Source: a virus (lineage: Duplodnaviria > Heunggongvirae > Uroviricota > Caudoviricetes). Taken from it: DNA of 38,798 nucleotides. The notes below the pieces were generated by a model that worked only from the letters and a program-made list of their open reading frames with translations, was not told where the DNA came from and searched no databases. Positions 3,010 to 14,454 of this stretch are shown here, piece after piece. Position 1 is the stretch's first letter. Each line of letters starts with the position of its first letter. A program made the translations under genes and the position numbers. The stretch lies in IMG/VR virus record IMGVR_UViG_2703718804_000009, one strand, 5' to 3'.

Positions 3010-3067
3010 AAAAATGGCGGCAGAGCAGTCACGGAGTAAAACTGATACCGCCAAACGTCACCAGAAA
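3010..3067 (-). ncRNA. dicF: DicF small RNA (ftsZ-targeting sRNA of the dicB operon)
   Basis: Reverse complement of 3010-3067 reads TTTCTGGTGACGTTTGGCGGTATCAGTTTTACTCCGTGACTGCTCTGCCGCC followed by a U-run, matching the DicF sequence as I recall it; located between the ydfC-like gene and dicB. Confidence 0.75.
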
Positions 3068-4802: not shown

Positions 4803-5519
4803 TCAGTCTAAGTATTGATGTATTTGTGAAACTTTACCTTTAATGGTGTAACCACCATTCAGTTCGATGGGTTTGTAAAGCGGATTCAGTGACAACAGAT
4901 AGATGTTTGGTCCGTCAATCGCAACTTTTTTTAGTGTTACGTTTGGCGTTCCTTCCAATTGGATTAAGATTATTTTTCCCACCAGTTCTCTAATGTTACT
5001 TGAGCATGGTGTGATCAGCACGGTAGATCCATCGGGGATGGTTGGGAGGCCGTTAGAGTTTGTCATCGCATCTCCCTCAACATGCAATAAAAAAGAGTTT
5101 TCAGCGGTTTTTGTCATGACATCAACCCAATTCTTAATGCCAGGAATCTCGGTTACTGGACAACTCATATCCCAATAACCAGCCTGTTCCCACGTTAAAA
5201 CGGGCAACCGGGCGATGTTGTCACTAATGTAAAGATACTGATTCAGACGCAGATCATCGGTTTTATCGTGACCGTCCTTTCCATAAAGAATCCATTCAGG
5301 AGATTTGGAAAGCAATTTTGACAGTAGATGCAAATTCTCACCGTCAGGTTTTGAAGAGCCATTTTCCCATTTTGTTACGGATACACGAGATATGCCGATT
5401 GCTTTCGCAACCTGCTGTTGGGTTAATCCAACGTCTTTTCGACGATTCCGAATACGTTCGCTGATAGTGTTTTTCATGTAACCAATGTTACTACCAAGTG
5501 ATGTTGCTATGGTTGACAT
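4803..5519 (-). CDS. cI: CI-type prophage repressor (HTH plus LexA/S24-like autocleavage domain)
   Basis: Track ORF 4803..5576; XRE-type HTH (LTQQQVAKAIGISRVSVTKWENG) and a C-terminal S24 peptidase-like region; divergent from the cro-like gene. Start is ambiguous (5519 MSTIATS or 5477 MKNTISER); the mRNA may be leaderless. Confidence 0.8.
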   Translation of the reverse strand: MSTIATSLGSNIGYMKNTISERIRNRRKDVGLTQQQVAKAIGISRVSVTKWENGSSKPDGENLHLLSKLLSKSPEWILYGKDGHDKTDDLRLNQYLYISDNIARLPVLTWEQAGYWDMSCPVTEIPGIKNWVDVMTKTAENSFLLHVEGDAMTNSNGLPTIPDGSTVLITPCSSNIRELVGKIILIQLEGTPNVTLKKVAIDGPNIYLLSLNPLYKPIELNGGYTIKGKVSQIHQYLD

Positions 5520-5541
5520 TGCTATGTAACTATTGTTACCC
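5513..5541 (+). promoter_or_regulatory. candidate pR/OR: consensus -35 TTGACA (5513-5518) followed by operator palindrome GTAAC-N4-GTTAC (5526-5539)
   Basis: Read directly from the sequence; the -10 element is weak or ambiguous; the region sits between divergent cI and cro-like genes. Confidence 0.4.
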
Positions 5542-5568
5542 TCCTGCTCGAAATAACAGGAGAGTTTT

Positions 5569-5784
5569 ATGTTCAAAGATGATGTTCTGCGCTATTTCAA
5601 AAAAAAGCGACTAGTAGCTGAGGCTCTTGGAATTTCACATGTGGCTGTTGTGCGGTGGAAAGCAGTTATTCCCAAACTTCGCGCAATGGAACTGGATGAA
5701 ATTACTAACGGTGAATTGAAATACAACCCAGAACTTTACAAGAAGCAGGATAGCACCTCGAACGAAGGAAAGAATGATTCATGA
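5569..5784 (+). CDS. Cro-like HTH regulator (DicC/YdaS family)
   Basis: Track ORF; 71 aa; divergent from cI; AGGAGAG SD; resembles DicC/YdaS-type Cro proteins (from memory). Confidence 0.65.
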   Translation: MFKDDVLRYFKKKRLVAEALGISHVAVVRWKAVIPKLRAMELDEITNGELKYNPELYKKQDSTSNEGKNDS

Positions 5785-6206
5785 AAATCAAGCATGAACA
5801 CATCCGCATGGCGATGAATGCCTGGGCGCATCCGGACGGCGAAAAAGTACCGGCTGCGAAAATTACCAAAGCGTATTTCGAGCTGGGAATGACGTTCCCG
5901 GAACTGTATGACGACAGCCATCCGGAAGCCCTGGCTCGCAATACCCAGAAAATTTTCCGCTGGGTAGAGAAAGACACCCCTGATGCAGTTGAAAAAATTC
6001 AGGCGTTGTTACCAGCGATCGAAAAGGCAATGCCACCTTTGCTGGTGGCCAGAATGCGCAGCCACAGTTCAGCTTATTTTCGGGAGTTGGTGGAGACGCG
6101 GGAGCGACTGGTGAGAGACGCTGATGATTTTGTCGCAGTGGCAATCGCCGGTTTCAATCAGATGAACCGTGGTGGCCCGGCAGGAAATGCTGTGGCAGTA
6201 CATTGA
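5781..6206 (+). CDS. YdaT-like protein (CII-analogue position)
   Basis: Track ORF; MKIKHEHI N-terminus typical of YdaT as recalled; ATGA overlap with the cro-like stop. Confidence 0.55.
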   Translation: MKIKHEHIRMAMNAWAHPDGEKVPAAKITKAYFELGMTFPELYDDSHPEALARNTQKIFRWVEKDTPDAVEKIQALLPAIEKAMPPLLVARMRSHSSAYFRELVETRERLVRDADDFVAVAIAGFNQMNRGGPAGNAVAVH

Positions 6207-6277: not shown

Positions 6278-7348
6278 ATGGCTAACGCCTGGCTCAGATT
6301 ATGGCATGACATGCCAAATGACCCTAAGTGGCGAACAATTGCCAGGGTGTCAGGGCAGCCAATTGCAACAGTGATGGCAGTGTATATCCACCTCCTGGTG
6401 AGCGCGTCACGAAATGTCACGCGAGGTCACATTGATGTCACGACAGAAGATTTGGCAAGTGCGCTCGACGTGACAGAAGAGGTAATTGATTCAATTTTGC
6501 AGACGATGCAGGGGCGGGTACTTGATGGTGATTTAATCACTGGATGGGAAAAACGCCAGGTGCTTAAAGAGGACAACGGCAATATTTCGCAAACCGCAAA
6601 ATCTCCTGCAGAGCGCAAGAGGGCGCAGCGAGAGAGGGAAAGAAAGCGGGAACAAAATGGCGATTGTCACGGCGCGTCACGAAATGTCACGCACATGTCA
6701 CGACGAGTCACGACAGATAAAGATACAGATAAAGATACAGATCAAGAAGATCAAAACACTATGGTCCATGGCGTAAAAAACGCCACGAACCAGGCAGGGG
6801 ATGTTCAGACCGTCAATCTTGGTCAGCCAGCAGGCACGACACCGGAAGCCGATTCAGCGTATGCGCTGAAAGCCGATTCGGGCGCTGTGCAGCAGGTGAT
6901 GACCGCAAGGCCGGAGCAATCACACCAACTGCAGCAGCCTGAAGCCGATTCCGCCATTCAGCGGGAAGCCGATCGGGTAGTCCCGGAAAACACCGGGCAG
7001 CCTGTGGGACGAGTGGATTATCCGGATGTGTTCGAACAGGTCTGGCGGGAATACCCGTTGCGTGCTGGGGCAAACCCGAAGAAATCCGCTTTCAGTGCTT
7101 GGAAGGCCAGATTACGCGAGGGGGTGTCACCAGAGGCCATGCTGGATGGCGTGAGGCGTTACGCAAGATACCTTGCGGCTACCGGGAAAACGGGAACGGA
7201 ATTTGTTCAGCGAGCGACGACGTTTTTTGGACCGGACCGGAATTTTGAAAACCCCTGGCTGCTCCCGGTAAGCGGCACGAACAACCAGCGTTGTGTGAAT
7301 CATATTTCTGAACCGGATACCGAAATTCCACCGGGCTTCAGGGGGTAA
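6278..7348 (+). CDS. replication initiation protein (lambda O-like replisome organizer)
   Basis: Track ORF 6272..7348; N-terminus MANAWLRLWHDMPNDPKWR resembles phage replisome-organizer N-terminal domains; iteron arrays embedded in the coding sequence; GAGGTGA SD before the ATG at 6278. Confidence 0.65.
   Translation: MANAWLRLWHDMPNDPKWRTIARVSGQPIATVMAVYIHLLVSASRNVTRGHIDVTTEDLASALDVTEEVIDSILQTMQGRVLDGDLITGWEKRQVLKEDNGNISQTAKSPAERKRAQRERERKREQNGDCHGASRNVTHMSRRVTTDKDTDKDTDQEDQNTMVHGVKNATNQAGDVQTVNLGQPAGTTPEADSAYALKADSGAVQQVMTARPEQSHQLQQPEADSAIQREADRVVPENTGQPVGRVDYPDVFEQVWREYPLRAGANPKKSAFSAWKARLREGVSPEAMLDGVRRYARYLAATGKTGTEFVQRATTFFGPDRNFENPWLLPVSGTNNQRCVNHISEPDTEIPPGFRG
6406..6441. repeat. iteron array 1: four GTCAC(G) repeats at about 10-bp phasing
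   Basis: GTCAC at 6406, 6416, 6426 and 6437, read directly. Confidence 0.6.
6666..6735. repeat. iteron array 2 (five GTCAC(G) repeats at 10-11 bp phasing) followed by tandem ACAGATAAAGAT x2; candidate origin of replication
   Basis: GTCAC at 6666, 6676, 6686, 6697 and 6707; tandem 12-mers at 6712-6735; architecture resembles lambda ori inside the O gene. Confidence 0.55.
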
Positions 7349-7388: not shown

Positions 7389-7811
7389 GTGGCAAAAGTT
7401 TTTACACAAGAAGAGCGAGAAAAAATTAAAGGGCAGGTTGTTGAACTCGTACGCCAGAGTGGGCGTGAGACGTTACGGCAACTGGAAGTCAAAACAGGTG
7501 CGACAAGATATCTGATGAGCGTTCTCGCAAGAGAGCTGGTTGCCAGCGGCGATGTATACAACTCTGGTTACGGGTTATTCCCGTCTGAACAGGCGCGTAA
7601 GGACTGGCAAAATGCCCGTAAAAAGCTCTCAAGGGCAAAGCTGAAGAAACCATCTGCGGTTGATCCGGACCTTATCTGGTCATTACCAGACGGAGAAATA
7701 CGCCGCTACGACAGGCGTCAGAACATAATCTGTAGCGAGTGCCGGAAGAGCGCAGCTATGCAGCGTGTACTGGCTTTCTATCAGGGTAATTTTCAGGAGG
7801 CGGTACTGTGA
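7389..7811 (+). CDS. hypothetical protein (140 aa), possible winged-helix DNA-binding protein; GTG start
   Basis: Track ORF; GGAGGA SD upstream; lies after the replication gene. Confidence 0.45.
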   Translation: MAKVFTQEEREKIKGQVVELVRQSGRETLRQLEVKTGATRYLMSVLARELVASGDVYNSGYGLFPSEQARKDWQNARKKLSRAKLKKPSAVDPDLIWSLPDGEIRRYDRRQNIICSECRKSAAMQRVLAFYQGNFQEAVL

Positions 7812-10303: not shown

Positions 10304-10631
10304 AAACAGAAACAACAATTGCCGTTACCTGTTGTTACCATGGCAAGTAAACGTATCTCAGGCGAGCGCATTGCGCCGTTCTGACGCAGATAAATTAGCC
10401 TGGATAGAAGGTGCTGGCAATAAAAAATAGCGTTTTCTTATCGGTGTCGGTAAGATTGCTGCGGGTGCTTGAGGCTGTCTGCCTCAGGCATGCCACTGTA
10501 AGGCAGACAGAGAAAAGCCCCAGTTAACATTACGCGTCCGGCAAGACGCTTAACATTAATCTGAGGCTCAATCTATGAACGGCAAATCTAGGTTAGCCTC
10601 TTACGCGCCGAAAGGCAAGGAGAAGCAGGCT

Positions 10632-10787
10632 ATGAAGCAGCAAAAGGCGATGTTAGTCGCCCTGATCGTCATCTGTATTACCGTCATTGTGACGGCACTG
10701 GTAACGAGGAAAGACCTCTGCGAGGTACGAATCCGAACCGGCCAGACGGAGGTCACTGTCTTCACAGCTTACGAACCTGAGGAGTAA
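10632..10787 (+). CDS. hokD: Hok/Gef-family type I toxin (51 aa), near-identical to HokD/RelF as recalled
   Basis: MKQQKAMLVALIVICITVIVTALVTRKDLCEVRIRTGQTEVTVFTAYEPEE; AAGGAG SD 9 nt upstream; structured leader; an in-frame upstream ATG at 10575 gives the 70-aa track ORF. Confidence 0.85.
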   Translation: MKQQKAMLVALIVICITVIVTALVTRKDLCEVRIRTGQTEVTVFTAYEPEE

Positions 10788-14143: not shown

Positions 14144-14219
14144 CGGCCCTTTAGCTCAGTGGTGAGAGCGAGCGACTCATAATCGCCAGGTCGCTGGTTC
14201 AAATCCAGCAAGGGCCACC
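14144..14219 (+). tRNA. tRNA with CAT anticodon, most similar to tRNA-Ile2 (lysidine, AUA-decoding; ileX/ileZ-like); tRNA-Met not excluded
   Basis: Hand-folded cloverleaf: 7-bp acceptor stem, GCTC/GAGC D-stem, CTCATAA anticodon loop, perfect T-arm (GCTGG TTCAAAT CCAGC), CCA end. Confidence 0.7.
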
Positions 14220-14220
14220 A

Positions 14221-14297
14221 ACCGCCACTAGCTCATCAGGAAAGAGCGTCAACCCTTTAAGTTGAGTGTGCGAGGTTCGAGTCCCCGGTGGCGGTCC
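14221..14297 (+). tRNA. tRNA-like gene, atypical; predicted anticodon UUU (Lys) with C at position 33 and one T-stem mismatch; possible pseudo-tRNA
   Basis: Hand-folded: 7-bp acceptor stem (CCGCCAC/GTGGCGG), D-stem GCTC/GAGC, anticodon stem TCAAC/GTTGA with loop CCTTTAA, TTCGAGT T-loop, CCA end. Confidence 0.4.
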
Positions 14298-14299
14298 AG

Positions 14300-14375
<76 letters not shown>

Positions 14376-14378
14376 ATA

Positions 14379-14454
<76 letters not shown>

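Follow-up and report, generated by a model that had tools for sequence, protein, structure and literature searches.

A candidate two-part iteron origin inside the replication initiator gene of a lambdoid prophage

Origins embedded in initiator genes and the locus studied

Replication origins that lie within the genes of their own initiators are familiar from the RepA_N plasmid initiators of Gram-positive bacteria, such as the RepA proteins of pSK41 and pTZ2162, and from DnaD-like replisome organizers, such as G38P of phage SPP1, where oriL is situated in gene 38. Two-cluster systems are also known, with ori and crr in P4 and, in the P1 (incC/incA) or F plasmids, origin iterons together with control iterons that flank rep. 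Among lambdoid phages, the origin of lambda is located inside O, in the part of the gene coding for a linker between the DNA-binding N-terminal domain and the helicase-recruiting C-terminal domain of the protein, with its iterons abutting an A+T-rich tract; the origins of Stx phages, with six iterons, are likewise placed, and mosaic phages swap the specificity module, made up of the N-terminal domain and the iterons, as one piece (PMC7466680). For Salmonella phage L, the proposed origin consists of six imprecise 11-bp repeats (TGTCCAACGGA) inside gene 18 (PMC8022706). A further group of lambdoid modules, termed ‘O-only’, has been described as replicating in a manner ‘not yet understood’, none of them having been studied experimentally (PMC12315714).

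The stretch of DNA analysed here, referred to as the window (38,798 nucleotides), is a lambdoid prophage carrying a replication initiator gene at 6278–7348 on the plus strand, in which two arrays of short phased iterons and an A+T-rich tract are embedded. Comparison with homologous loci makes it highly probable that this segment is a phage replication origin of the iteron type, situated in the gene of its own initiator. The kind of element is familiar, and its two-part layout is unusual. The original prediction, made from the letters of the window, had likened the segment to lambda ori, and the likeness stands for the annotation of the gene and for its layout, as the iterons again adjoin an A+T-rich tract in the linker-coding part, between a presumed DNA-binding and a presumed helicase-recruiting domain. 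It does not extend to homology with O, which is undetectable (no Phage_rep_O match), nor to the iterons themselves, which are 6–7-bp direct-repeat cores recurring every 10–11 bp where lambda has dyad-symmetric sites of about 19 bp. The window also differs from lambda in having two arrays, about 260 bp apart, and in having no P-like loader gene. Phage L resembles the window in that short repeats spaced at one helical turn lie inside a lambdoid initiator gene, both having been called origins from sequence alone, but its motif is another one, a single array has been reported, and a DnaB-type helicase gene adjoins it.

The RepA_N initiators and DnaD-like organizers are similar to the protein of the window in fold; nonetheless, there is no significant sequence match (Phage_rep_org_N, E=0.12), the hosts of the window are proteobacteria, and its C-terminal domain bears a DnaT-like tail. 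P4, P1 and F offer what appears to be an analogous arrangement, as each has one initiator-binding repeat in two clusters set apart, only one of which adjoins an unwinding element. The window likewise has a second iteron cluster remote from the presumed unwinding element, namely array 1, which belongs to the same motif class as its partner in every class examined. In contrast to those systems, both clusters of the window lie inside the coding sequence of the initiator at their distance of some 260 bp, one of them within the region coding for the DNA-binding domain. No paper describing the origin of this module was found in the literature and, as far as could be found, the conserved bipartite arrangement is seemingly undescribed for it.

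The gene product, a protein of 356 amino acids named ‘phage replisome organizer’ by NCBI, shows 100% identity to TRITO_36 (OV696610.1) from Escherichia phage Tritos and matches phrog_3729 at E 1e-257, a family annotated as replication initiation protein. Strain LF82 carries Tritos as a prophage, and the phage has been isolated as a plaque-former (PMC9928086), which indicates that the replication module works. Upstream of the gene are those of an S24 repressor (4803–5576, minus strand), a P22-Cro-like protein (5569–5784) and a YdaT/CII-like protein (5781–6206), while a DUF977/Ren-like gene (7389–7811), a gene for a zinc-ribbon protein and genes for proteins of unknown function follow downstream. 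Neither a helicase gene nor a helicase-loader gene (P-like or DnaC-like) was found in this early-right operon, and the missing loader gene fits the ‘O-only’ lambdoid modules (PMC12315714). Elsewhere in the window, Rfam matches were obtained for DicF antisense RNA (3015–3066, minus strand), for sok antitoxin RNA at 10463–10637 (plus strand), beside a hok-like ORF (10575–10787), and for a cluster of four tRNA genes (14145–14451, plus strand).

A three-part organization has been predicted for the initiator with AlphaFold2. The N-terminal domain (approximately aa 1–128, encoded by 6278–6661) is modelled confidently, with helices at residues 29–45, 56–63 and 67–77 and a hairpin at 78–87; it is followed by an inter-domain linker (aa 128–247, encoded by 6659–7018) predicted as disordered, with a mean pLDDT of about 44–52 across aa 131–240, and by a helical C-terminal domain (approximately aa 248–356, encoded by 7019–7348) whose helical part spans 249–317. 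A repeat of the structure prediction used an alignment of database proteins only. The fold of the N-terminal domain is a winged helix, like that of the DnaD N-domain and of RepA_N initiators, and this domain is presumed to be the iteron-binding module. To our knowledge, the N-domains of DnaD proteins do not by themselves recognise specific DNA sequences, a point which has been counted against the origin reading. No Pfam family, that of lambda O included, was matched at E<=0.01, and at E<=1 only HTH_Crp_2, PhyR_sigma2 and Phage_rep_org_N appeared, all of them under their cut-offs. For the last of these (PF09681), the score was 12.8 bits against a gathering cut-off of 23.3, the sub-threshold alignment covering aa 5–122 and 121 profile positions, which is the full profile length.

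The C-terminal domain, presumed to be the helicase-recruiting module, has PHROG matches to phrog_1701 (DnaD-like helicase loader) and phrog_9327 (primosomal protein). Its last 23 residues (aa 334–356, encoded by 7277–7345; VNHISEPDTEIPPGFRG) align to the C-terminus of DnaT (E 0.015), and the tail is a close match to the very C-terminal end of the E. coli protein in PDB 6aep, 2ru8 and 9zbt (E ~0.02). Several of the mosaic C-terminal domain variants seen in homologues end in ...IPxGFRG too. For a phage without a loader, a tail resembling DnaT may be a route to the host helicase machinery, and it constitutes a lead on how the host helicase is recruited.

The phased arrays and the adjoining tract

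Four and five copies of GTCAC(G) at about 10-bp spacing had been predicted, and all of them were located on the plus strand, 10–11 bp apart. In array 1 (6403–6444) the iterons start at 6406, 6416, 6426 and 6437 (spacings of 10/10/11 bp), the copy at 6426 being a GTCACA variant. In array 2 (6666–6712) they start at 6666, 6676, 6686, 6697 and 6707 (10/10/11/10 bp), and a 10-bp array at 6665–6715 is called by Tandem Repeats Finder. Arrays 1 and 2 share an exact 21-nt stretch, GCGCGTCACGAAATGTCACGC. A further iteron, absent from the earlier prediction, is a single inverted copy on the minus strand at 6469–6474 (CGTGAC on the plus strand), which coincides with codons D64-V65-T66 and occurs at gene position 193 in most homologues. 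From the domain limits given by AlphaFold2, array 1 corresponds to the end of helix 1 and the loop leading to helix 2 (A43–T55), the inverted copy to the turn that connects helices 2 and 3, and array 2, which covers aa 130–146, encodes together with the tract a part of the disordered linker between the N- and C-terminal domains.

The clustering of these motifs is far beyond chance. The longest chain of any 5-mer spaced at 9–12 bp in the 38.8-kb window consists of five copies of GTCAC, while in 200 first-order Markov simulations the chain maximum over all 5-mers was 2–3 and never exceeded 3. The total number of GTCACG occurrences in the window is not unusual (25, with 18.6 expected), so that the exceptional features are the clustering and the phasing. 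No enrichment of DnaA boxes was seen around the candidate origin, nor across the window, where 66 matches compare with 69 expected, and a promoter scan returned one weak match on the minus strand, made by the iterons themselves and below the number expected by chance.

The presence of two separate arrays, as predicted, is conserved in homologues and is not peculiar to this copy. Array 1 is situated 240–350 bp upstream of array 2 among them (mode 258–260), and array 2 comprises 3–5 copies at 10/11-bp spacing. The conserved core is 6–7 bp long, (T)GTCACG(C/A), and is arranged as a direct repeat with variable spacers of 3–4 bp. Changes in iteron number occur by steps of 21 nt, corresponding to two iterons or 7 codons, and the frame is kept. 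Array 2 of the window contains a 7-aa insertion, NVTHMSR (6673–6693), in comparison to most homologues, and in an E. albertii locus a 7-aa insertion has resulted in six iterons in array 1 (gene positions 129–181).

Directly after array 2 is an A+T-rich tract with a purine-rich top strand (6713–6760, plus strand). It begins with ACAGATAAAGAT x2.9 at 6713–6747, as called by Tandem Repeats Finder, in accordance with the tandem repeat that had been predicted at this place, continues with GATCAAGAAGATCAAAACACT and contains two GATC. Its GC content of 0.37 is the lowest within the gene and its AT skew is 0.63; the tract is presumed to be the DNA-unwinding element. Among 31 loci, AGATAAAGATAAAGA or a close variant is found directly 3' of the last iteron, with AGATA beginning at +8 from that iteron in 20 of them. 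The mean A+T content of the tract in these loci is 69%, against 45% for the genes, loci of 66–69% G+C included, and purines make up 74% of its top strand, these values having been measured from the last iteron as an anchor that is wrong for loci L002 and L032. Purine richness is also seen in a coding stretch upstream, KRAQRERERKRE. The two GATC (Dam) sites of the window, at 6740–6743 and 6749–6752, have equivalents in the tract of several enterobacterial homologues and are absent from the Pseudomonas phage; as GAT is frequent in the tract, they may be due to chance.

Just 3' of the tract, at 6762–6792, lies TGGTCCATGGCGT-AAAAA-ACGCCACGAACCA, an imperfect inverted repeat of 13 bp whose loop consists of five A residues and which scores as terminator-like on the minus strand. 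Phage PhiR5_2 retains it with both arms changed (GCGT/ACGC to GCGA/TCGC). Inspection by eye had suggested hairpins in several homologues, but a hairpin as a family-wide third origin element was rejected after a scan of 33 loci, in which windows from the same loci served as controls and a median p of 0.42 was obtained, with p<=0.1 in only 4. The inverted repeat of the window is an uncertain part of the origin.

Constraint on the DNA and on the encoded peptides

Within the protein, the repeats had been predicted to appear as SRNVT and DKDTDKDTD segments, and the peptides encoded by the arrays and the tract, SASRNVTRGHIDVTT and CHGASRNVTHMSRRVTTDKDTDKDTD, match this description. The repeats might be viewed as low complexity of the protein (SRNVT, DKDT), with no role for the DNA. 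Such an explanation agrees with the DKDT/DKDK tract, whose period of 6 or 12 bp keeps the frame and whose length varies by 6 or 12 bp, as for a slippage-prone coding repeat. The GTCAC arrays, however, recur with a period of 10 bp in 103 cases and of 11 bp in 30 (24 loci), so that every reading frame is used for the core, which is translated as Cys-His (tGTCAC), Ser-Arg (gTCACGn), Val-Thr (GTCACg) or Gly-His (gGTCAC). In array 2 of the window the frames read CH, SR, VT, SR and VT in order. The tract, for its part, has been kept in three frame contexts in which the peptides differ (VTTDKDKD, SHDRLDKRR and VTPQIREE), and this conservation speaks for a DNA-level constraint. When 19 and 70 homologues with mosaic C-termini are aligned, conservation within the otherwise variable linker is confined to residues encoded by the cores and by the start of the tract (H131, S134, R135, V144, T145 and D147).

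The synonymous sites of the cores, which are frozen, also speak against an explanation based on the protein. Homologous loci were gathered by protein patterns, one of the two falling in the array-1 peptide, by which amino acids are selected and codons are left unconstrained. In 22 gaplessly aligned loci of the GTCAC class, with a mean nucleotide identity of 70% and a locus G+C of 34–69%, V47 is encoded by GTC, T48 by ACG, G50 by GGT and V54 by GTC in every case (22/22 each), H51 by CAC in 21/21 and S44 by TCA in 21/22, and V65 of the inverted copy is encoded by GTG in 18/18. Invariant valines outside the cores (V32, V41 and V81) make use of all four codons, and at R49, which lies between cores, the third position varies freely. 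Core codons have a normalised synonymous entropy of 0.06, and the other conserved codons, 46 in number, one of 0.83 (Mann-Whitney p=1.3e-6). Among 80 near-identical E. coli copies, substitutions are found in the spacers while the cores are intact save for one exception, and length changes are confined to the ACAGATAAAGAT tract. Judged from these alignments, the motifs are under purifying selection at the DNA level. For the GTCAC arrays, the comparison of loci already contradicts an explanation of the repeats by protein low complexity, which as a whole is scarcely credible. The arrays offer an unusually clean case of overlapping protein-coding and DNA-site constraints, with codon freezing and three-frame reading.

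The same loci bear on the question of whether both arrays matter. It could be argued that the origin consists only of array 2 and the tract, and that array 1 is functionless, being kept by gene conversion from array 2 or persisting as a relic of duplication. The two extra iterons of array 2 in the window (the 21-nt insertion) suggest exchange between the arrays, the identical 21 nt common to both may be read in the same way, and some homologues (L031, L033 and L038) are without array 1. Nonetheless, in 22 lineages whose nucleotide identity averages 70%, the four iterons of array 1 have kept their positions, frames and codons, and conversion by itself would not preserve register and codon choice over such divergence. 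Both arrays are also intact in Pseudomonas phage phita81A, where they have no long identical stretch in common. A functionless array 1 is considered unlikely.

Co-inheritance with the N-terminal domain and proposed function

GTCAC makes up both arrays in 24 of 38 genome loci, at constant gene positions (approximately 129–160 and 387–430), whereas clear arrays are absent from the distant homologues L031, L033, L038, L040 and L041 and from a Microcystis phage. Their absence from these distant members counts against the origin reading. Homologues at a greater distance from the window have different cores, GTAACG in L025, L028, L035 and L037 and CGAACGC in L032, L034, L036 and L039, always with the same core in both arrays. 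Three more cases came from a search among isolated phages in which the motif played no part: Ralstonia phage Firinga (38% identity), with GCAACG x5 at gene positions 130–182 and x4 at 401–431, a spring-water phage with CGAACGC x3 and x5, and Aeromonas phage pAEv1818 with GTCAC x4 and x3. There are four iteron classes in all, namely GTCACG (the 24 genome loci and the Pseudomonas and Aeromonas phages), GTAACG, CGAACGC and GCAACG, which have an ACG core in common and differ in the bases 5' of it. Close relatives may differ as well, with GTCAC in L027, GTAAC in L028 and a mixture in L025; the two arrays switch together, and in L028 the inverted copy has switched too, to GTTAC. As far as these loci reveal, both arrays change together with the N-domain variant, in a co-variation comprising few independent switches, since the classes largely follow clades.

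The same N-terminal domain and arrays have been found joined to unrelated C-terminal domains, with the mosaic junction located within the linker. In phita81A, the N-domain has about 70% identity and both arrays are present, while an unrelated C-domain follows the tract and is succeeded by a gene for a Toprim-DnaB primase-helicase. A DnaB-like helicase gene also adjoins in Firinga, whereas the window has none. The converse is provided by phage PhiR5_2 (L003), in which the C-domain of the window (65% identity from aa 160) is combined with a different N-domain and GTCAC arrays are lacking. As the N-domain follows the arrays across C-domains and PhiR5_2 shows the converse, the travelling unit comprises the N-domain, both arrays and the tract, the same logic as in lambda, where the N-domain of O and the iterons of ori are exchanged as a unit. 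PhiR5_2 possesses two 11-bp repeat clusters of its own (2187–2209 and 2439–2461), about 250 bp apart, each made of two 11-bp units (AAGGGGCTTCN); the two clusters are inverted with respect to one another, as a 23-nt inverted repeat, and a GAACAG x4 purine tract follows the second of them. A bipartite layout may be common among initiator genes of this sort.

These observations also allow a different explanation to be weighed, by which the arrays would be sites for another protein, such as a regulator from the immunity region, the DUF977/Ren-like protein or a host factor, and would serve regulation or exclusion. It draws on the location of the gene in the early-right operon, beside the Cro-, YdaT/CII-like and DUF977 genes. 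The arrays, however, follow the N-domain into Pseudomonas, Aeromonas and Ralstonia phages, in which these neighbours are without evident counterparts, the annotations there comprising different repressor and Cro types and various hypothetical proteins. The motif class, moreover, changes with the N-domain variant, and a single host factor is unlikely when the hosts range from Entomomonas to Bordetella and four motif classes exist. This explanation is regarded as quite improbable, and all three rivals fit the data less well than an origin does. The candidate origin that had been predicted, with iterons and an adjacent A+T-rich tract inside an initiator gene, finds comparative backing for each of its elements, and the DNA-level selection, the joint change with the N-domain and the location in the linker lend support to this reading.

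Were the segment to act as an origin, the winged-helix N-domain of the initiator would bind the GTCACG cores, with one core per helical turn placing the protomers on one face of the DNA. An oligomeric complex assembled on array 2 (6666–6712) could then distort the DNA and open the adjoining tract (6713–6760), and the C-terminal domain, with its DnaT-like tail, would bring host DnaB (with DnaC). Array 2 and the tract are the best-supported candidate for the origin core. Array 1 and the inverted copy would be second sites for the same protein, some 260 bp upstream, and array 1 may be an auxiliary or control element operating by DNA looping or pairing between protein-bound arrays. We infer the binding protein, the unwinding, the recruitment of the helicase and the role of array 1 in this scheme, the initiator being assigned as the putative partner of the iterons by its co-inheritance with them.

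A more far-reaching reading is that of a partly self-referential origin, in which residues that help to set iteron specificity in the DNA-binding domain of the initiator would themselves be encoded by array-1 iterons and, in some relatives, by one more iteron where helix 3 begins. This is rather doubtful. If it were true, the same stretch of DNA would be both a binding site and the code for its reader, one event of recombination or conversion could alter both of them, and the existence of four specificity classes in a domain that is otherwise near constant would be explained. The extra iteron occurs in L027 and L028 (relatives from Erwinia, Enterobacter and Pantoea) at gene positions of about 214–235, over the codons with which the putative recognition helix begins, and the peptide there is ERHV with GTCAC and VSNV with GTAAC.

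For the ‘O-only’ modules, the present finding supplies a concrete starting point for the study of replication, consisting of a precise candidate origin, whose core measures about 100 bp, and a predicted binding motif, and four natural specificity variants are available for swaps. The segment comprising the N-domain and the arrays is present in 2078 of 5426 complete E. coli genomes (38%), and relatives are distributed across gamma- and beta-proteobacteria. In many E. coli genomes the gene is found in several copies, at up to 5 places per genome. Many database entries for the protein are marked as ‘partial’ and are located on very short contigs, which suggests that this multi-copy gene often breaks short-read assemblies.
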